From: an uncultured delta proteobacterium
GTDB taxonomy: Bacteria > Desulfobacterota > Syntrophia > Syntrophales > UBA2185
Assembly: GCA_963695875.1 (NCBI GenBank)
Contig: CAVOID010000007.1
Coordinates: forward strand, 1 to 64,000
Length of the DNA: 64,000 nucleotides
Direction: 5' to 3'
The position numbers and the translations under genes were made by a program. The first letter of the stretch is position 1; each line of letters starts with the position of its first letter. Below the pieces are notes generated by a model. It did not search any database. It had not been told where the DNA came from and worked only from the letters and a program-made list of their open reading frames with translations. Below are positions 8,026 through 40,685 of this stretch, piece by piece.

Positions 8026-8511
8026 TCAATATTCGTCCAAAACAGAGAGCCCTCGCTCACCAATCAGAATAATCTCGGTATGGTTCAGACGGGTGGCTAT
8101 TACTTTTGCCGTGGCCTGCATGAAATTATATCCTAATGTAATGTCTTTATTCAGCAGCTCCCTGAGTTTAGCTCCATCGAAGGCAATGGCTTTCGAGTCA
8201 TCAATACATCGAGCTCCTAAGGTGTACACATAAGGCTCAATAACTGCTGACCATCCCATAGCATCTCCCTTTGTGATGAGATCCACAGTGACCTGCATTG
8301 GTGGTTTAGCAGTACCCATGTAGGTATCCATGACCAGAACAACCTTTCCCCCTGCCAACATGTAGAGGTTCTTCGCTGAATCTCCCTTTTTCCACAACTG
8401 GAAACCGGCCTTATAAGATTCTTCGGTAGCGATATCCGCCAGTTTTTTGATCTGTTCCTCACTGAACCCTTTGAAAAAATTGTATTGCTTTAAGAGATCT
8501 ACCGAAACCAT
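8026..8511 (-). CDS. stand-alone cyclic nucleotide-binding domain protein
   Basis: cNMP-fold pattern with GDAMGWSAV; no C-terminal HTH. Confidence 0.85.
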   Translation of the reverse strand: MVSVDLLKQYNFFKGFSEEQIKKLADIATEESYKAGFQLWKKGDSAKNLYMLAGGKVVLVMDTYMGTAKPPMQVTVDLITKGDAMGWSAVIEPYVYTLGARCIDDSKAIAFDGAKLRELLNKDITLGYNFMQATAKVIATRLNHTEIILIGERGLSVLDEY

Positions 8512-8922
8512 GAACTGTTACCTCCTTTCTGAATAGTTGGCATGCTTTTTTCCCCTACAGGAAGTGTTTTTCGAAATTGCATATATTATATTTTTAAATA
8601 CTTTTTTCCTTATAAATCCATCAGGCATATTCTGATTTCAACGGTCTAAATCCCTTAGTCAATAAAGGTCAGAGACAGACAGAGTTTTCTGACAGCAAAC
8701 CCATGAAATTCCTGTGTGGATAATTTGGATATAAAAGATGGCGTGACTTTTCTTGATTTTCACATGAAATGTTGGACTGACGGACTGACTAAGAAAAACA
8801 AAAGAGGAAGCCATCTGCATTTTACATAAACGGAAAGCAGACCGTCAAAGTTTCACATGTTTCTGTCGATTAGGAAGAAGGGAATGCAATTGACATCCAC
8901 ACAGATAGTTCATTTGCCAAAT

Positions 8923-13043: not shown

Positions 13044-13323
13044 GGTGTCCCTCCTCAAGAATGAGTTTCTTAGCTTCGTCATCTTTTTTTATACACAACG
13101 AATTCCTGAGCTAAACAAACATTCTTCCTCCATATCGACCCCACCTTGACTATTTTCTGATCATGTGACTCCCTCATTTGATGATGTAAAACAATAGGGA
13201 TTGTTAAGTAGAGGAATGGTAGGCAAAAACTGATAACAAGGGATGATATTCAGCCTTAAGACATAACTTCTTACGGTAAGAGTATATGAAGAATGGTCTT
13301 GTGTCGATGGAACATCAATGACA

Positions 13324-13453
13324 GATTACCGTTTGAAGGGTTGTATGATTGAGAAATCCATCGGGTCATTGACAACAGGAAGGAGTGCTTGATGAAAACA
13401 CCTACAAAGCGAGAGTTTCCGATTTTCAATTGACTTGATGAATACCACTTGTA
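13324..13453 (+). repeat. A-N36-B followed by C-N36-A (130 bp)
   Basis: GATTACCGTTTGAA, N36, AACAGGAAG (13374-82); CCTAC 13401-05, N36, ATACCACTTGTA. Confidence 0.8.
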
Positions 13454-17468: not shown

Positions 17469-18458
17469 TTATTTTACTCTTCTTTTAGGTGTCTCCGGCT
17501 CCTGCATGGCTTCTGAGGGGGATGGCGTCTCCTTTGCCTTTTCCTCCCAGAGGTACATCTTCTCCCGCGCAACTTTGGCGTTTGCGGCATCGGGAACGAG
17601 TTCCAGATAACGTTTCATATATAAGGCAGCCCATTTGTACCTCTGCAATTCTCCTGCAAGCATAGCGGCATTAAACTGCCCCTGCGGCCACAAAGGTTCA
17701 ATGGTCAATCCTTTTCTGTAATACTCAAGAGCTTTTTCAAAGTCTTTATTATTGAACGCGTCCTCAGCCACTACCCGGTATCGCTGCACATCTTCGGGCA
17801 GGGCGGGCTTCACCAGCAACTCGCGATACCTCTTGGCTTCATTTGCGAATGCGGTCTCTTCCACTTTCCGTCTAGCCTCCTCTGACTGCCTCCTGGCTTC
17901 CTCTTCTATCTTCAAGCAAAGATCTTCTATTGCATATTTCATAGCCTTGTTAATTGACACGCTGTCAGTCTCCGCAGTAAACCTGCTACCCACTCCCTTT
18001 ACGATGCCTTGTCCAGAGAAATTACCAAGATCCAACCCATCTTTGGAAATCAAAGTTGCGTGCATATTAACTATGTAATCAAAATAATCGTAGTTAGTTA
18101 AATGGTATCTAACATCAACATTCAATATACTATCCGATGGGCTATCAAGAACAGAGTGAAATATATTACGTGTATTTAGATATGTTATGAGTATTTCCTT
18201 TAAAGACTCCCTATTCACAAATATCGGAGTAGTAGAATTTGGATTTTCTTGTTTAACTTCTTTAAGTTCTACTCGCACTGAAAGCGGTAATTGAACCATG
18301 CTTTTTGACTCAGCCTGAAAAGGCGTAATCGTTATAGTACGGGAAAAAGCACAGCCCGTCATCAGTAAGCCAATCAAAAGGTAAACGCATATTTTCCATA
18401 AGGAACGGCCTCGCCTCCCCGTCACTCTATTAATACCAAAAAGGCTTAAATAATTCAT
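17469..18458 (-). CDS. lipoprotein with C-terminal TPR domain
   Basis: LMTGC lipobox; TPR-like C-terminus. Confidence 0.8.
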   Translation of the reverse strand: MNYLSLFGINRVTGRRGRSLWKICVYLLIGLLMTGCAFSRTITITPFQAESKSMVQLPLSVRVELKEVKQENPNSTTPIFVNRESLKEILITYLNTRNIFHSVLDSPSDSILNVDVRYHLTNYDYFDYIVNMHATLISKDGLDLGNFSGQGIVKGVGSRFTAETDSVSINKAMKYAIEDLCLKIEEEARRQSEEARRKVEETAFANEAKRYRELLVKPALPEDVQRYRVVAEDAFNNKDFEKALEYYRKGLTIEPLWPQGQFNAAMLAGELQRYKWAALYMKRYLELVPDAANAKVAREKMYLWEEKAKETPSPSEAMQEPETPKRRVK

Positions 18459-18459
18459 T

Positions 18460-19419
18460 TCATTTGCCCTCCACCGTCAACTTTTGTTGCATCTCCTCCT
18501 CCGCCTTTCCCTCCCAGAGATACATTTTCTCACGCCCGATGTTGGCGTTCTTGGCGTCGGGAACGAGTTCCAGATAATGTTTCATATATAATGCGGCCCA
18601 GTCGTACCAACGCAATTCACCTGCAAGCATAGCGGCATTGAACTGCCCCTGCGGCCACAAAGGTTCGATTGCCAACCCCTTACTGTAGTACTCGAGAGCT
18701 TTCTCAAAGTTCTTATTATTGAAAGCATCTTCAGCCATTACTCGGTATCGCTGAACATCTTCGGGCAGGGCCGGCTTCACCGGCATCTCGCGGTATCTCT
18801 CTGCCTTTTTTGCGAATGCGGCCTCGGCAGCAAGATCATCCCCGGGTGCGGCTGGTGTGTAACCTTCAGCGCAGCGTTTGAGCACATAGAACGCATTCGC
18901 CAAAGAAACTGCGTCATCCTTATTCATTGTGCCGAAATCAATATCGTTTCTATAGTATCTGGATTCACCCAAAGTGGGTGTGCCTTTAGCCTCGACCTCT
19001 ATATTGCCCAGGAATACGTAAAATATTCCGCTACCCCCCTTTCTGACACTAACGTTCATTGATTTAAAATATGACGTACAGAAATTATGTATGTAATTGT
19101 TACTATCAAACTCAATAGAAGGTCTCCAATAGTCATCCCAAGCTACTTTGTCGGAACCTATTTTAATGCTATTAATTAAATGAGTGCCGCCATAAGTGTA
19201 GCCGCCTGTCTTCCTAGTTGTGTTCCTATCGTCGACACGATACATCACCGTGAGTTTTTTCATAGACTCTATTTTTTTGTGCGCCCGCGAACACGACATC
19301 ATCGTTATCGTTGAGTCTTTTGGCTGATAAACGACTTCCAAATCAGCAGCCATGCTCGGTTGAATACTGACAAGTAACGTCATGACGGCTACTGCCAGGA
19401 TAAACAATTTTTTCTTCAT
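18460..19419 (-). CDS. secreted protein with C-terminal TPR domain
   Basis: Signal peptide; C-terminus nearly identical to both neighbours. Confidence 0.8.
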   Translation of the reverse strand: MKKKLFILAVAVMTLLVSIQPSMAADLEVVYQPKDSTITMMSCSRAHKKIESMKKLTVMYRVDDRNTTRKTGGYTYGGTHLINSIKIGSDKVAWDDYWRPSIEFDSNNYIHNFCTSYFKSMNVSVRKGGSGIFYVFLGNIEVEAKGTPTLGESRYYRNDIDFGTMNKDDAVSLANAFYVLKRCAEGYTPAAPGDDLAAEAAFAKKAERYREMPVKPALPEDVQRYRVMAEDAFNNKNFEKALEYYSKGLAIEPLWPQGQFNAAMLAGELRWYDWAALYMKHYLELVPDAKNANIGREKMYLWEGKAEEEMQQKLTVEGK

Positions 19420-19432
19420 CTTGATACTCCTT

Positions 19433-20380
19433 TCATTCGCCCGCACCCGTCAGCTTCTGCTGCTCCTCCTTAGCCTTTTCCTCCCAGAGGTACATCTTCT
19501 CCCGCGCAGCGTTGGCGTTCTTGGCATCGGGAACGAGTTCCAGGTAACGTTTCATATATAAGGCGGCCCATTTGTACGAGTGCAATTCACCTGCCAGCAT
19601 AGCGGCATTGAACTGCCCCTGCGGCCACAAAGGTTCAATTGCCAACCCTTTTCTGTAGTAATCGAGAGCCTTCTTGAAGTCTTTATTATTGAACGCGTCC
19701 TCAGCCACTACCCGGCATCGCTGCACATCTTCTGGCATCGCCGGTTTCACCGGCATCTCTCGGTACCTCTTAGCTCCATTTGCAAATGCTGCCGAGAAAG
19801 CAGGATCTTCAGGGGTGTAGCCTTCGGCGTAGCGCTTGAGCACATAGAAGGCGTTGACCAAAGAGACGGCTTCATCCTTTCTAAGTGCATCCCAAAAAGA
19901 AGCATTACCTTCATGAGTGTATCTGTGCTTCCCAGTCTCATAATGCACAGGCTCACCACCACCCAGTAATACATTGTATGTCCCATACGTACTTTTCACA
20001 ACATTAGGGTCCATCGATTTTAAATATGATGTATATGACCACACTACCTCCGGGTAATTCTTAGTAAAAGTTATCTTGTCGGAACTTATTTTAATGTCCT
20101 TGAGTATAGTGGCGTTATAGGTATAGTCAGTATATCCGGGAGGAATCGGAAGGCGGCGGTTTTCCATAGACTCTATTCTTCTTTTCGCCTGCGAATATGA
20201 CATCATTAGCAACAAGTCGTCATTCGGCGCATAAACTACTTTGTCTTCTTTATTGCCAGCAGCTAAACTCGGTTGAATACCGACAAGTAGGGTCATGAGG
20301 GATAATACCAGGGACAGATACGCAATAGCGTACAAATGGAAACGAAATGGTTTCATAAAAGCCTCCTTTATCGACCCCAT
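19433..20380 (-). CDS. secreted protein with C-terminal TPR domain
   Basis: Signal peptide; paralog of 18460-19419. Confidence 0.8.
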   Translation of the reverse strand: MGSIKEAFMKPFRFHLYAIAYLSLVLSLMTLLVGIQPSLAAGNKEDKVVYAPNDDLLLMMSYSQAKRRIESMENRRLPIPPGYTDYTYNATILKDIKISSDKITFTKNYPEVVWSYTSYLKSMDPNVVKSTYGTYNVLLGGGEPVHYETGKHRYTHEGNASFWDALRKDEAVSLVNAFYVLKRYAEGYTPEDPAFSAAFANGAKRYREMPVKPAMPEDVQRCRVVAEDAFNNKDFKKALDYYRKGLAIEPLWPQGQFNAAMLAGELHSYKWAALYMKRYLELVPDAKNANAAREKMYLWEEKAKEEQQKLTGAGE

Positions 20381-20840: not shown

Positions 20841-21446
20841 GTCGGCCTAAGGGTCTTAGGAAGCCAACCGAAAATGGCACTTTAAAAAAGTTGTTTTCAG
20901 CTACTAAAGGTGAAACCGAGATTGTCAAGCTTTCCAATCTTTAAATTTATTTTTAACTCTTTATTAATTCTTCTAATTTTTCAACTTTTTCGTTTAGAGT
21001 AAAAACTAATTTTTCCAAAAGGTCTATTCTATTATAAAGTTTCCTTGCGATTTGTTTCTCGCAAAAAACGATAATCTCTTTCTCTTTTGTGCCAGTCACG
21101 TTTCCGTCCATAGATTGCCTCCATGTCCAGTCTAAAAATTAATATATGAATCAACTTTTCCTGCTGGTCTTGGTCGTAAACAGGGATATCTGCTGTTTCA
21201 CCTTCTTGCTTTTGCATTTCGGACATGTGGCTTTGCCCTTATCATGTTCGCTGAAACTCTGTATCAATGAAAACTCTTTTTTGCAGGCTTCGCAAAGATA
21301 CTCATACGTTGGCATGCTTTCACCTCCACATTAGGATTATTTATATTGCTATTTTTGATTTATATTTTAATTAAATGAGATATATTGTCAACTTCAGTAT
21401 TTCCAAGTTTTGATCTTAATATACCACACCTAAGTCATTTATTAAA
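20841..21446. repeat. ~600-bp direct repeat, copy 1 (copy 2 at 34328-34931)
   Basis: Near-identical sequence by direct reading. Confidence 0.95.
21151..21315 (-). CDS. FmdB-family zinc ribbon protein
   Basis: MPTYEYLCEACKKEF...CPKC; GGAGG RBS. Confidence 0.85.
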   Translation of the reverse strand: MPTYEYLCEACKKEFSLIQSFSEHDKGKATCPKCKSKKVKQQISLFTTKTSRKS

Positions 21447-21479
21447 GAATGCTTAAACCGGAAGAACAGGGGGCCTGAT

Positions 21480-23209: not shown

Positions 23210-23294
23210 TGAAAAATGAACCACAGGTATGTATTATCATCTGTTATCTCAAATGCTTTATAATGACAGAAGTGTGTGGACTTCAGTCAATAAA

Positions 23295-23548
23295 GATAAT
23301 CATTTGAAAGGATGGATCAATGTTAAAAATGCCGGCCGCTTTGTTTCAGGAAGAACGGATTACACTTAGTTGACTGACGAATATTTTTAAGATTATCAGT
23401 ATTATCTTAAAAATGATCGGCACAGTGCAGATTGCCGCATGAAGAACATACAACGAGAGGAATCAGCGGATAAGCCCTTGCAACACTTGTTAACGCCTAC
23501 GAGTCAATATATTCATGAAGCCGGGAAAACTGAAGATTACCAATTGAA
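23295..23548 (+). repeat. A-N36-B, X palindrome, C-N36-A
   Basis: GATAATCATTTGAA, N36, TTCAGGAAG; X at 23385-412 (TTTTAAGATTA-TCAGTA-TTATCTTAAAA); CCTAC 23496-500, N36, TTACCAATTGAA. Confidence 0.85.
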
Positions 23549-30553: not shown

Positions 30554-31598
30554 TCATAGGCTCAGCAGTTTGTTTTGATCGAAAGCCTCCTTGTTCTTGA
30601 GCATGAAATATACGGCCCGTCCCAATTTATGGGCAAGGATAGACAGGGCTTTTGCTTTGCCGTGTTTCCTGGTAAGCCTGTCTACATATTTCTTTGCCAG
30701 ATCATTGCTTTTGAGAAAGAAGACGGCGGCCTCGGAAAAGGCCCACTTGAGGTGAACGTTTCCTATTTTACTGCCGCCGGAGCCGCATTTTTTCCCATTG
30801 GATTCTTTGGCGCATTTTACGAGGCGGCTGTATGAGGCAAAGTCCTGCACACTGGCAAAGCGGCGGATATTTTCTATTTCGTACAGCATGATCAGGGCGA
30901 TGATTTTTCCAACTCCCGGGATGGTCTGGAGTAAGGCATAGGAAACCGGGTCGTGGTTATTGGCCAGTTTAATTATGGATTTTTCGAGTTGCAATAAGAT
31001 GCCGTCATAGGTCCTGATCATTTCAATATCTACGGCAATGCTTTTCTGCACGGAAGGCTGTTCAAATTGCCCGGCAATGCCGTTCCTGTTCTGATGTCTT
31101 GAAATGGGGCCAAAGGAATCAGGCAGGTTGTACTGGCTGTTGGTGTTCTGGATGTGAGCGTAGAGTTCGGAGCGTTTTCTCATAAGGTGATTCCGGCGTC
31201 TCATGAGGTCACGCGTGGATCTCATCTTTGCTGGATATACATAGGCCATGGGGATCATGCCTCCTCTGAGGAGTGCGGCGATCTTTTGGGAGTCGATCTT
31301 GTCGGTTTTTTGCTTTCCCGCCATGGATTGCCTTCATGTAGAGGGCATGTCCGAGGACGAAGGGAATGCCTTCGTTGTGGCAAAGATCGGCTACCCAGTA
31401 CCAGGTGAAGATGCATTCTACGGCAACGACGATATCCTCACGAAAGGGAGCGATGGCTTTGAGAAAGGCATCACGGTCGGTTTTCAGGTTGCGATGTTCC
31501 CTGATTTCTCCTTTTTCATCGAGGATGCAGATATACATTTTTCTTGTGTGTAGATCGATTCCGCAGTGATACTTGTGCTGATTAGTGTAAAATCTCAT
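30554..31598 (-). pseudogene. IS110 transposase with a single frameshift near 31305
   Basis: GIDLH, AVEC, HGGKAK / DKIDS, IPGVG, GNVHLKWAFSEAA. Confidence 0.9.
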
Positions 31599-32626: not shown

Positions 32627-32642
32627 TGCAATGCTGACCATT

Positions 32643-32697
32643 GATTACCACTTGAAAGGATGCATATCTGTCAAAATCATCGGATGCTTGACTTCAG
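32643..32697 (+). repeat. A-N36-B site with B split by IS110 #3
   Basis: GATTACCACTTGAA, N36, TTCAG | GAAG (34315-18). Confidence 0.85.
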
Positions 32698-32795
32698 CTT
32701 GCTATATTGTAGTTCGGGATTGAATCGACTTCGAGAATGTCATATATCCTTCCGATGCAAGATTGGTTATTCCAGGAAAATGGCAAGGGAGGGAT

Positions 32796-34067
32796 ATGGT
32801 TATGAAGAAAGCAGATACCGGGAAAGTGAGAGGTGTAAGGGACGACGCGTTGATCGTAGCGGTAGATATAGGAATGGAGATGAATCGGGGATATTGTACC
32901 ACCCCAGACGGGAGGAGCACGAAGACTTTCAAGTTTGAAAATACCAGGGAGGGAATGGATACGCTCTGGGGCATGATTATGGCGAGCAAGAACAGATTTA
33001 AATGTAACGAGGTGATTGTCGGATATGAATCAACCGGTCCCTATGGGGAGCCTATGCTTCATTACCTGATGAAAAAGCCGGTTAGGATTGTGCAGGTCAA
33101 TCCCATGCACACAAAGAGGGTAAAGGAGATAAACGACAATTCTCCGTTAAAGACCGATGAGAAGGATCCGCGGGTCATTGCGGATATCATACGGTGGGGC
33201 CATGCATTGAGCATTGTCATCCCGGAAGGTGATGCGGCGTATTTACGGAGGTTGAACAACTCGCGGGAGAGGCATGTAAGGGAACGGACTGCCCTTGTGA
33301 ACCAGTTACAGCAATTGGTCTTTCTGTTGTTTCCCGAGTTCATGACAGTGATAAAAGATATAAAATGCAAGACACCTCTCTACCTTCTCAAGAGATATCC
33401 GACGCCGGAGGCCATAAGTGTTTTGGACAAGCAGCTCCTTGGCGAAGAAATGAGGAAGCGGAGCAGGGGCAAGTTTAGAGAGCACCATGCGGACATGCTG
33501 ATCAATCTTGCCAAGAATACCGTCGGTATCAGAGAAGGCGTTTCTGGTCTCTCCATGGACATAAGACATATCCTCGTTCAATTGGAGATGCTAAAAAACC
33601 TTATTGCCGAGATAGAGAGCGAGATGGAGATAGCCCTTGGGAGGATACCTTATAGCTCAAAGTTGCTTTCCATAAAAGGGCTTGGCGTAGTATCCGTGGC
33701 AGGCATCATCGGAGAGATAGGAGATTTTAAGAAATTCAAGACACGGTCAGAGATCATGAAACTGGCCGGTCTTGACCTCTACGAGATAAGCTCCGGCAAA
33801 ATGAAAGGACAGCGGAGGATCTCAAAAAGAGGAAGGAGTCTGCTCCGGAAGATACTCTATTATGCGGCGATCCAGACCATAAGAAAGAATGGCATCCTGC
33901 ATGATTACTACACAAGACTGACCGACAGGGGCATGAAAAGGATGATGGCCCTCGTTGCGGTTTCCAGGAAGCTTTTGGGAATCATCTATGCGATTGTAAG
34001 GGATGACAGCGAATATTCAGTCAACTTTGAATCCATGAAAAGGCAGGTGATAAAAAAGGCTGCATAA
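32796..34067 (+). CDS. IS110 family transposase/recombinase
   Basis: AVDIG, YESTG, KTDEKD, IKGLG, AGL....SSG, ISKRG...LR. Confidence 0.95.
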   Translation: MVMKKADTGKVRGVRDDALIVAVDIGMEMNRGYCTTPDGRSTKTFKFENTREGMDTLWGMIMASKNRFKCNEVIVGYESTGPYGEPMLHYLMKKPVRIVQVNPMHTKRVKEINDNSPLKTDEKDPRVIADIIRWGHALSIVIPEGDAAYLRRLNNSRERHVRERTALVNQLQQLVFLLFPEFMTVIKDIKCKTPLYLLKRYPTPEAISVLDKQLLGEEMRKRSRGKFREHHADMLINLAKNTVGIREGVSGLSMDIRHILVQLEMLKNLIAEIESEMEIALGRIPYSSKLLSIKGLGVVSVAGIIGEIGDFKKFKTRSEIMKLAGLDLYEISSGKMKGQRRISKRGRSLLRKILYYAAIQTIRKNGILHDYYTRLTDRGMKRMMALVAVSRKLLGIIYAIVRDDSEYSVNFESMKRQVIKKAA

Positions 34068-34079
34068 GGTATTATTACA

Positions 34080-34230
34080 TAGGCGGGGAGATTATCGTTT
34101 TCTTCCATTGAGGCGCATAGCGACCTCCTACTTCAGAATACATAACTCCCCGTCAACATCCTAACCTCAATTGAGCAAGGTAAAAGCGTTTCATACGACT
34201 TTCAAATTACAAGGGTTGGGTAGGATGTCA
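34080..34230 (+). ncRNA. putative bridge RNA of IS110 #3
   Basis: Two stem-bounded loops containing all four guide segments. Confidence 0.85.
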
Positions 34231-34410
34231 TACAACAAGATGGGGATAACCGCCTATGAAAATACCTTCAAACATAAAATACATATGAAAAATATCTTGA
34301 CTGGAATAAACAAGGAAGAAGCAGAGTGTCGGCACAAGGGCCGTGGGAAGCCAACCGAAAATGGCACTTTAAAAAGTTGCTTTCGGCTACTAAAGGTGAA
34401 ACCGAGATTG

Positions 34411-34596
34411 TCAAGCTTTCCAATCTGTAAATTTATTTTTAATCTTTATTAATTCTTCTAATTTTTCAACTTTTTCGTTTAGAGTAAAAACTAATTTTTC
34501 CAAAAGGTCTATTCTATTATAAAGTTTCCTTGCGATTTGTTTCTCGCAAAAAACGATAATCTCTTTCTCTTTTGTGCCAGTCACGTTTCCGTCCAT
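34411..34596 (-). CDS. small coiled-coil hypothetical protein
   Basis: GGAGG RBS; the copy at 20953-21111 is shortened by a 1-nt indel. Confidence 0.55.
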   Translation of the reverse strand: MDGNVTGTKEKEIIVFCEKQIARKLYNRIDLLEKLVFTLNEKVEKLEELIKIKNKFTDWKA

Positions 34597-34635
34597 AGAT
34601 TGCCTCCATGTCCAGTCTAAAAATTAATATATGAA

Positions 34636-34800
34636 TCAACTTTTCCTGCTGGTCTTGGACATAAACAGGGATATCTGCTGTTTCACCTTCCTGCTTTTGC
34701 ATTTCGGACATATGGCTTTGCCTTTATCATGTTCGCTGAAACTCTGTATCAATGAAAACTCTTTTTTGCAGGCTTCGCAAAGATACTCATACGTTGGCAT
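34636..34800 (-). CDS. FmdB-family zinc ribbon protein
   Basis: MPTYEYLCEAC...CPKC. Confidence 0.85.
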   Translation of the reverse strand: MPTYEYLCEACKKEFSLIQSFSEHDKGKAICPKCKSRKVKQQISLFMSKTSRKS

Positions 34801-35157
34801 GCTTTCACCTCCACATTAGGATTATTTATATTGCTATTTTTGATTTATATTTTAATTAAATGAGATATATTGTCAACTTCAGAATTTCCAAGTTTTAGTC
34901 TTAATATACCACACCCAAGTCATTTATTAAAAAATAAAAAACAGACCCCCAAAATACAGCATAAAAATTGTCTTGGCTTCTGAATTGATGGTAGTATCCT
35001 AAAGGTAATAAAACATACTGTAAGCGGGGGGTACATCCGAAAATGTCTCTTTTTACTTCTAAGGATAATTTGCTCACAGCGTCCGAAACCGTGAGGTCAG
35101 GAAGGTGTCTTACAGCACCTAATCAACGCTGGGGGCTTTTTTCACGGAGGTGGAGAA

Positions 35158-36269: not shown

Positions 36270-36537
36270 TGAGTCAAGTAGACCGGTTTCTCCCCATTGA
36301 ACGTAATAAATACAAAACCCCGCACTCTTTTTGAGTAACAGGGTTTTAATAATCTCTTCATGGCACCACCCTTACAAAAAGGGTTCAGATTAGTTGTTAA
36401 CCTTTCGACGATGCCCTATTTAAATATGATTATTTTTGTGCTCCCAATTCTTTAAAAAGTCAAGAGACAAATTTCATTGATAACCATTTGAAAGGGTGCA
36501 TATCTGTCAAAATCACCGGATACTCCCTTTCAGGAAG
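36270..36537 (+). repeat. D motif, weak C-N36-A, A-N36-B
   Basis: D at 36270-96; CTTAC 36371-75, N36, TGCCCTATTTAA; GATAACCATTTGAA, N36, TTCAGGAAG (36479-537). Confidence 0.75.
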
Positions 36538-40041: not shown

Positions 40042-40199
40042 GCAGATTAGGTTTACATTAAGACGTATAACAATAAGCGGGATCAAAAGACCTTATGTGA
40101 TGAATTATTTCTAAGGCGGCGTACTCTGCGACATTAAGAAAACGGTAAGAAGCAACAGAGCCCAAAAAGCATCTTTTTTTCTGAAAGGAGGTAACACAC

Positions 40200-40685
40200 A
40201 TGGTTTCCGCAGATCTCTTAAGACAATTCGTGTTTTTTAAAGGTTTTGATGAGGGTGATTTAAAGAAACTGTCAGGTGTCGCTTCTGAAGAATCGTTTAA
40301 AGCAGGAGTTCAGGTCTATAAGAGAGGTGATCCGGCAAAAAAACTCTATCTCGTGGAAGAGGGAAAATTTGTCATGCTCATGGAGAGTTACATGGGCACC
40401 GCTAAACCCCCCATGCAGGTGACTGTGGATATCGTCACAAAGGGTGATGCCATGGGATGGTCCGCTGTTGTTGAACCTTACGCTTATACCTTAGGGGCCC
40501 TGTGCATTGACAATGCAAAGGCCATTGCTTTTGATGCGGAGAAACTCAGGGAACTACTGATTCAAGACGGTGCTTTAGGACTTAATTTTATGCAGGCCAC
40601 GGCGCGGGTAATAGCCGCCCGTCTGACCCACACCCAGATCATATTGGTTGGTGAGAGGGGACTGTCTACCTTGGCTGAGACGTGA
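40200..40685 (+). CDS. cyclic nucleotide-binding domain protein
   Basis: Close paralog of 8026-8511. Confidence 0.85.
   Translation: MVSADLLRQFVFFKGFDEGDLKKLSGVASEESFKAGVQVYKRGDPAKKLYLVEEGKFVMLMESYMGTAKPPMQVTVDIVTKGDAMGWSAVVEPYAYTLGALCIDNAKAIAFDAEKLRELLIQDGALGLNFMQATARVIAARLTHTQIILVGERGLSTLAET

Follow-up and report, generated by a model that had tools for sequence, protein, structure and literature searches.

An IS110-family insertion sequence from an uncultured Syntrophales bacterium that very probably encodes a bridge RNA downstream of its transposase gene

We analysed a stretch of 64,000 nucleotides (the window) from an uncultured delta proteobacterium. The window is C7:1-64000 of an assembly of 16 contigs and 2.86 Mb that is 82.6% complete. 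It contains an IS110-family element with one transposase gene, which is preceded by 98 nt of non-coding sequence before its start codon and followed by 247 nt after its stop codon. The features of the element and its surroundings are shown in Table 1. Relatives were collected in one scan of species-representative genomes and two related-genome searches, and their transposases are 51-94% identical. Places that were found repeatedly (L009 = L022, L013 = L023, L011 = L025) were each counted once. The close relatives are labelled Syntrophales, Syntrophaceae and other Deltaproteobacteria.

Table 1. Coordinates of the element, its putative RNA and associated features (window positions unless another contig is given)
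Feature	Position	Strand	Basis or remark
Intergenic repeat, ~60 nt	13320-13378, 23291-23349, 32639-32697 (occupied), 36475-36533
Intergenic repeat, ~60 nt, other copies	G000 C7:69497, C10:13406, C15:39867, C11:29626; L068, L071 (one same-genus genome)
Left target half ACTTCAG (5 nt + AG core)	32691..32697	+	identical to the 3' target guide, 34130-36
IS110-family element	32698..34314	+	1617 bp, one AG core copy counted
Left-end donor hexamer CTTGCT	32698..32703	+	reverse complement of the 5' donor guide, 34174-79
-10-like box TATATT	32703..32708	+	read from sequence
5' leader hairpin	32744..32797	+	32744-32758 with 32783-32797, 15 nt, 80%
Transposase gene, 423 aa, uninterrupted ORF	32796..34067	+	PF01548 + PF02371
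Predicted bridge RNA core, target and donor loops, ~150 nt	34081..34229	+	model R1 175.7 bits, fold, covariation
Putative target-binding loop	34082..34154	+	closing stem 34082-95/34142-54; inner hairpin 34110-16/34120-27
5' target guide TTCTTCC	34100..34106	+	reverse complement of last element G + GAAGAA (34315-34320)
3' target guide ACTTCAG	34130..34136	+	equals the 7 nt left of the element, 32691-32697
Putative donor-binding loop	34156..34228	+	closing stem 34156-72/34214-28; inner hairpin 34183-87/34197-202
5' donor guide AGCAAG	34174..34179	+	reverse complement of left-end CTTGCT
3' donor guide ACAAG	34209..34213	+	equals the last 5 nt of the element
Conserved 3' tail	34239..34268	+	kept in relatives of at least 70% protein identity, not conserved in the 51-53% clade
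-35-like box TTGACT	34297..34302	+	read from sequence; TTGAC[TA] or near variant at same place in the relatives listed
Right-end donor bases and core ACAAG	34310..34314	+	equals the 3' donor guide
Right target half GAAGAA	34315..34320	+	only GAAG common to most relatives' flanks

The transposase matches PF01548 (DEDD_Tnp_IS110) at residues 21-180 (E 1.4e-25, 90.3 bits, cut-off 29) and PF02371 (Transposase_20) at residues 289-372 (E 1.4e-21, 77.1 bits, cut-off 21.3). The NCBIfam model NF033542, "IS110 family RNA-guided transposase", gave 195.9 bits against a cut-off of 140. The closest solved structure is the IS621 recombinase (8wt6, E 7e-13). The E of YESTG, both D of KTDEKDPR and the S of ISSGK align with E60, D102, D105 and S241, the catalytic residues of IS621 as numbered in PMC11208158. 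The first catalytic D (VAVDIG) lies outside the printed IS621 alignment and was read by eye. Plasmid records gave only "IS110 family transposase" entries, with at most 35.5% identity to the 423-aa protein. The protein is an IS110-family DEDD transposase with a predicted N-terminal RuvC-like domain and a predicted C-terminal Tnp domain.

The boundaries were determined by comparison with relatives. Similarity begins at CTTGCT and stops at ..ACAAG, and the relatives' elements are 1578-1727 bp in length. The left junction is ..ACTTCAG/CTTGCT.. (between 32697 and 32698) and the right junction is ..AACAAG/GAAGAA.. (between 34314 and 34315), which sets the length given in Table 1, with AG counted once. 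AG is present at both junctions, and 19 loci have the same junction form. On the relatives' metatranscriptome contigs, similarity starts at 32689/32690 and ends at 34318, with divergence beyond.

We found no orthologous empty site in the two same-genus genomes (G149 and G186). Both are without the transposase and have only repeats in common with the element flanks, so the locus is not conserved. Uninterrupted paralogous sites in the window's genome were taken instead. At these sites TTCAG is directly followed by GAAGAA: at C11:243117 the paralogue of the right flank comes directly after TTCAG, and at C11:29626 the paralogue of the left-flank repeat comes directly before GAAGAAC. The paralogous sites and the 19 loci indicate insertion without target duplication at a dinucleotide common to target and element, which is characteristic of the IS110 family.

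The landing site is the 3' end of a ~60-nt repeated intergenic element of the genus (..TTGAAAGG..TGTCAAAAT..), which ends in TTCAGGAAGAA and carries a weak promoter-like match on the + strand (TTGAAA-17-AATCAT). In the genome, the perfect 13-nt target ACTTCAGGAAGAA occurs unoccupied twice against 0.1 expected, and the 11-nt target core has 16 unoccupied sites against 1.7 expected. The genome contains one full copy of the element and one 5'-truncated fragment. This fragment (L002, G000 C6:23346-23677) preserves ~80 nt from the 3' end of the transposase gene, together with the right end and an RNA gene that is intact (179 bits). Of the relatives, L019 retains the last 72 codons and the RNA, and L033 has lost the RNA after the first 14 nt. 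These truncated copies do not represent a defined module because their break points differ.

The initial annotation of this DNA had described an intact transposase of about 423 aa and a core that reads CT on the opposite strand. Both descriptions agree with our results: the reading frame is uninterrupted, and AG stands at both junctions on the + strand. The same annotation had numbered the element as the third of its type, which we could not confirm, as only one other IS110-type gene was seen in the window. This unrelated second gene (30554-31598, minus strand) is split into two overlapping frames, with the start of the DEDD domain in 31212-31598 and the remainder plus Transposase_20 in 30557-31324. 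It is probably a frameshifted pseudogene, and no RNA was found beside it by model R1 (see below).

Other repeated sequences were observed in the window. The right flank of the element (34328-34935) is one copy of a 610-bp repeat whose other window copy, at 20841-21450, is 97% identical; copies of 93-95% identity lie on C11:219736-220279 and C3:104254-104496 (G000). Among the small ORFs of this repeat is one of 54 aa with a zinc-ribbon domain (34639-34800, minus strand, PF09723). At 17469-20380 on the minus strand lie three neighbouring paralogous genes of ~315-329 aa, with DNA 80-89% identical over stretches of 324-467 nt. Positions 8044-8550 and 40164-40667 form an inverted 507-nt pair of 74% identity, each over a 161-aa ORF.

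The 173 nt past the stop codon fold with -52.4 kcal/mol (z -4.5), and none of 200 shuffles was as stable. The minimum-energy fold of those 173 nt shows two stem-enclosed internal loops, with both closing stems present. In the target loop GGCGGGGAG (34082-90) pairs with CTCCCCGTC (34146-54), and in the donor loop CATCCTAACC (34157-66) pairs with GGTTGGGTAGGATG (34214-27). For covariation, 20 copies were aligned with MAFFT, and RNAalifold gave 40 pairs. Across these copies 99.0% of the pair cells are paired, compared with 40-48% after a shift of the 3' partners by 1-3 columns. Changes on both sides are seen in 15 of the 40 pairs, compared with 0-4 in the control, and none of 500 shuffles reached the observed values. 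Every one of the five helices is 97-100% paired. Helix 1 has 13 pairs (both-side changes in 6, 100% paired), helices 2 and 3 are 100% paired, helix 4 has 15 pairs (both-side changes in 5, 97.3% paired) and helix 5 has 5 pairs (both-side changes in 2). G-U pairs are common, for example 15/20 at columns 3/80 and 19/20 at columns 98/145, and fit an RNA of the + strand only. A two-loop structured RNA is kept here by covariation, as in bridge RNA and seekRNA.

When a covariance model (R1) built from 14 copies was run on 9 further loci, it detected the RNA 3' of the transposase gene in all 9. Its only two matches in the genome of the window were the window copy and the C6 fragment. R1 gave no match upstream of the gene, where the 98 nt of leader form a hairpin that covers the ribosome-binding site rather than a two-loop RNA. 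Searched against the relatives of 25-31% identity (L034-L047) and the rest of the window, it returned only a weak reverse-strand echo. Rfam at gathering scores had no match in the whole window. Four metatranscriptome runs from four studies contain assembled contigs of relatives, 88-100% similar to the element, that cover the gene and the RNA region and may include DNA. No terminator-like site was found in a scan, and promoter-like sites are not in excess (3 against 4.1 in shuffles). The sole promoter candidate upstream of the RNA is weak (GTGATA-17-TATTAT, 9/12).

Two words in the target loop match the DNA on either side of the element (Table 1). Each of these 7-nt words occurs once in the whole element. 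When the 235-nt non-coding region was subjected to 200,000 mononucleotide shuffles, both target words appeared together in 31, and all four guide words, donor words included, in 2.

We compared the 3' target guide of each copy with its own left flank at the 5 non-core positions in the 19 loci having both RNA and left junction. Of these 95 variable positions 86 match, against a mean of 40.8 under permutation, and none of 100,000 permutations reached the observed count. With one locus per distinct guide (11 guides) the count is 50/55 against a permuted mean of 20.3, again with 0/100,000 permutations. The guide ends sharply, because the next two positions outward match in only 3/38. Excluded from this count were L012, L014, L017, L018, L020, L048 and L050 (no RNA on the contig), L002, L015, L019 and L026 (RNA but no left junction), L016 (RNA broken by N) and L033 (RNA truncated). 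A related genome, G423, has four copies in four places, all TTACAG/GAAG beside the guide (G/A)TTACAG; in L065 the right flank is cut after GA. The dinucleotide after the 3' target guide is CT in the 51-53% clade, where it would fit bases 1 and 2 of the left end, and AA in the window's clade (compare the IS621 handshake).

The 5' target guide was compared with the right flank over 8 nt, namely the core G and 7 more. At least 6 of the 8 match in 17 of 19 loci (4 at 8/8, 7 at 7/8 and 6 at 6/8). The exceptions are L031 (1/8) and L062 (2/8), where the right flank is not matched and the other three guides match. The 5' target guides of these two loci end in ..CTA, not ..CC; L062 also has a left-end mismatch and a tail ~110 nt longer. 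Other registers were tried by eye for both, and the best, 5 of 6-7 and shifted, were rejected as unconvincing. Counted by guide class, 3 of 5 match the right flank and 2 of 5 (L031, L062) fail. The word (T/G)TTCTTCC is common to 15 loci, whose flanks begin with GAAG (GAGG in L024) and then vary. The differing classes that match are those of L029 (CTAAAGCC, 8/8) and L063 (6/8). The target loop thus contains segments complementary to both target strands that vary with the target, the 5' guide doing so in 17 of 19 loci.

The donor words of this copy are not significant alone, being found in 6% and 30% of shuffles, and they recur in the element (ACAAG at 34235, 33427 and 33912, AGCAAG at 32985). 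Because such words are common by chance, the donor reading rests on the relatives and not on the window copy. The 5' donor guide matches the left-end hexamer at 6/6 in 16 of 18 loci and at 5/6 in L031 and L062; L061 has 5/6 (by eye). Left ends CTTGCT, CGAGCT (L030) and CGTGCT (L063) face guides AGCAAG, AGCTCG and AGCACG, respectively. The 3' donor guide equals the last five element bases in 20 of 21 loci, the exception being the truncated copy L019. Right ends ACAAG, ATAAG (L015) and ACCAG (L029, L031, L062, L063) are mirrored in the guides as the same words. The donor loop thus has segments, short at 6 + 5 nt, that are complementary to both element ends and vary with them. All relatives listed carry ATA after the hexamer of the left end and again before the bases of the right end. 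When left-end positions 3-15 are compared with the complement of the right end, 8/13 agree in the window (by eye), and 10/13 in each of L029 and L031.

Every motif that had initially been read from the letters of this region was recovered at its position. The words TTCTTCC, ACTTCAG, AGCAAG and ACAAG were re-derived from the flanks by script at the same positions, and both closing stems are those of the minimum-energy fold. The compensatory changes and the co-variation of all four guides with DNA support the claim that a bridge RNA follows an intact transposase gene of the IS110 family. The proposed check by RNA folding and covariation gave the z-score and the both-side changes in 20 copies stated above. 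"Reprogrammable" has natural support in 11 distinct 3' target guides beside matching left flanks, some among transposases ~90% identical to each other. As for the vacant near-targets, TTCAGGAAGAA starts at 23345 and 36529, and each site differs from the guide at -7 and -6. The statement that subterminal inverted repeats are missing is correct where repeats near both ends are concerned, as no pair of 7-17 bp was found there. However, 13 nt at the right terminus, 34301-13, are 92% complementary to 32763-75 in the leader-hairpin loop, 66 nt inside the left end.

This terminus/leader-loop match is 12/13 in the window and L011 and 9-10/13 in the other relatives of at least 70% identity. It was reached in 0/2000 shuffles for the window and L011, and in 300-400/2000 for L009, L010, L024 and L027. 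In the leader hairpin, the ribosome-binding site and the start codon of the transposase gene are paired with ATATCCTTCC. The arms of this hairpin differ in sequence in L029, L030 and L031 (51-53% relatives) with pairing kept (by eye). At the other end of the gene, the tail segments GATGGGGA and CCGCCTATG are able to base-pair with the two strands of the target-loop stem. A further pairing is available between AATACCTT (34261-68) and AAGGTATT (34066-73), at the stop codon. Folded in full, the non-coding region adopts the tail pairings in its minimum-energy structure and loses the target-loop stem. The helix 34066-73/34261-68 has 7-8 of 8 pairs in close relatives (by eye) and one compensatory change in the 70% clade (L067), and the tails of the clades do not align with each other. 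The tail pairing could be a basal helix or a switch. The RNA would be ~150 nt in length, or possibly ~200 nt with the basal helix.

If the element ends were joined, TTGACT and TATATT would be separated by a 17-nt spacer, of which 12 nt come from the right end and 5 nt from the left end. The 17-nt spacing recurs in L029, L031, L062 and L063 despite differing end bases. Junction promoters are described for the IS110 family in PMC12288879, and TTGACT-17-TATATT may be such a promoter, formed upon circle formation.

Taken together, we consider it very probable that 32698-34314 is an IS110-family insertion sequence whose 3' non-coding region encodes a bridge RNA (seekRNA). The region would be transcribed and processed into an RNA with two internal loops, which the transposase would bind. 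The target-loop guides would jointly specify ACTTC-AG-GAAGAA. In the donor loop, AGCAAG and ACAAG would pair with the element ends joined as a circle (..AAC-AG-CTTGCT..), the presumed intermediate, in which the junction promoter would arise. On the model of IS621, the DEDD/serine recombinase would act as a tetramer that holds both loops and swaps strands at the common AG (CT opposite), and the circle would be inserted without target duplication.

The matches of loops to flanks and ends might have arisen without any guide RNA. The short words could be protein-binding sites in the DNA or remnants of earlier insertions. For this, the transcript evidence is limited to assembled contigs, and the family does have short end-proximal repeats, seen here as ATA...TAT in the CT-core frame (compare the Extended Data Fig. 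10 legend of PMC11208160). However, the stems are kept via G-U pairs and one-strand compensatory changes, which argues for RNA rather than duplex DNA sites, and an RNA-guided mechanism has been solved for the family of this protein. We find this explanation scarcely credible. Slightly less remote, yet still highly improbable, is an RNA that regulates or stabilises the transposase mRNA, like Ssr9/Asr9 of ISPpu9, and does not guide, with incidental flank matches. The downstream small RNA of ISPpu9 is reported as dispensable for transposition (PMC12288879), the tail here is able to refold the target-loop stem, and the terminus is complementary to the leader-hairpin loop, although this match is near chance in several relatives. 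Such a role leaves unexplained the identity between 11 different loop sequences and the left flanks of their own loci, and likewise the joint changes of end hexamers and loop hexamers. Regulation could accompany guiding but not replace it.

A guide RNA of this kind may also carry extra control. The tail might toggle the target loop between closed and open, with the terminus complementary to the leader-hairpin loop, in a clade that may at the same time be intermediate between the IS110 and IS1111 groups. This joint reading seems unlikely to us. If true, guide availability and transposase translation would be coupled through one transcript.

More weight must be given to the idea that a genuine element with a genuine RNA gene has ceased to move in this genome, so that the copy would be a relic that is intact by sequence only. 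The single full copy and the fragment in an 82.6% complete assembly, the unoccupied 13-nt and 11-nt targets, the truncated or frameshifted state of several relatives (L019, L027, L033, L048) and the ribosome-binding site hidden by the leader hairpin are consistent with it. On the other hand, the reading frame is uninterrupted with the catalytic residues kept, all four guides still match their partners exactly, relatives 87-94% identical are found at different sites in other genera and families, and one related genome has four copies at four sites. Immobility is a possibility that we take seriously, though we lean away from it. The signs are mixed, and the guided insertion sequence may still be active at present, for which the intact gene and the promoter that the joined ends would create also speak.

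In a natural bridge-recombinase system that is cleanly delimited, comes from uncultured anaerobes and has all four guides readable, the relatives would form a natural retargeted series. Variation is seen at five bases of the left target half, at about four of the right half and in the end hexamer, whereas the AG core, the stems and the left-end ATATTG are fixed. The system would be useful as an orthologue for engineering and for relating the IS110 and IS1111 layouts; the known mechanism is unchanged by it. Both the bridge mechanism and the downstream RNA position are already published (PMC11208160, PMC11187229).

The element resembles IS621 (PMC11208160, PMC11208158) in its DEDD RuvC-like domain and Tnp domain with catalytic serine, and in the two successive internal loops of its predicted RNA, first for the target and then for the donor, both of which enclose a hairpin. 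As in IS621, each loop would have one longer and one shorter guide, for opposite strands and overlapping at a 2-nt core, and a 3-nt ATA/TAT pattern stands beside the donor bases. Read on the CT-core strand, we infer from the sequence the same order and strandedness of all four guides as in IS621 (PMC11208160). Unlike IS621, whose RNA lies in the left end, upstream, the RNA here is downstream of the transposase gene, and in the gene direction the core is AG and the guides come in the opposite order. At 423 aa the transposase exceeds the 326 aa of IS621, whose residues 193-315 align with 284-404 of our protein, and the two are only remotely similar, as the E value above reflects. In both loops here, the 5' guide leaves one of the two core bases unpaired.

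ISPpu9 of Pseudomonas putida KT2440 (PMC12288879) also recombines at an AG common to target and element and inserts into repeated intergenic sequences. It has a folded leader, which hinders translation in ISPpu9 and is predicted to do so here, and a stray downstream small-RNA gene joined to a transposase 3' fragment, which may be compared with L002. In contrast, its bridge RNA is upstream and its downstream Ssr9 is a dispensable non-guide RNA. Its circles are described there as lacking a hybrid promoter, unlike the TTGACT-17-TATATT that joined ends would give here, and the truncated copies here (L002, L019, L033) start at different points, unlike a defined module.

The IS1111-type seekRNA elements ISEc11, ISKpn4, ISPa11 and ISPst6 (PMC11187229) share with our element a long downstream non-coding region that encodes the RNA. 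They likewise have the top-strand match 5' of the bottom-strand match, overlapping in the target, which is the reverse of the IS110-type order, and insert site-specifically into a repeated sequence. They differ in having subterminal inverted repeats of 7-17 bp, and the IS1111-family proteins have 330-350 aa, compared with 423 aa here. The downstream RNA and the guide order are thus those of the IS1111 group, and the subterminal repeats and protein length are not; the lack of long inverted repeats and the 2-3-bp repeat beside the donor bases are those of the IS110 group, and the position of the RNA, which is upstream in that group, is not. A length of 395-455 aa is given for the subgroup around IS110 itself, in which 423 aa falls, and some IS110-type elements have a 3' non-coding region (PMC11187229, Fig. 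1b group). The element may belong to this IS110-type group with a 3' non-coding region. Its layout is mixed, with the RNA position and guide order of IS1111, a long transposase and no long subterminal repeats. It is a new example of the mechanism described in 2024 and not a new kind of system.
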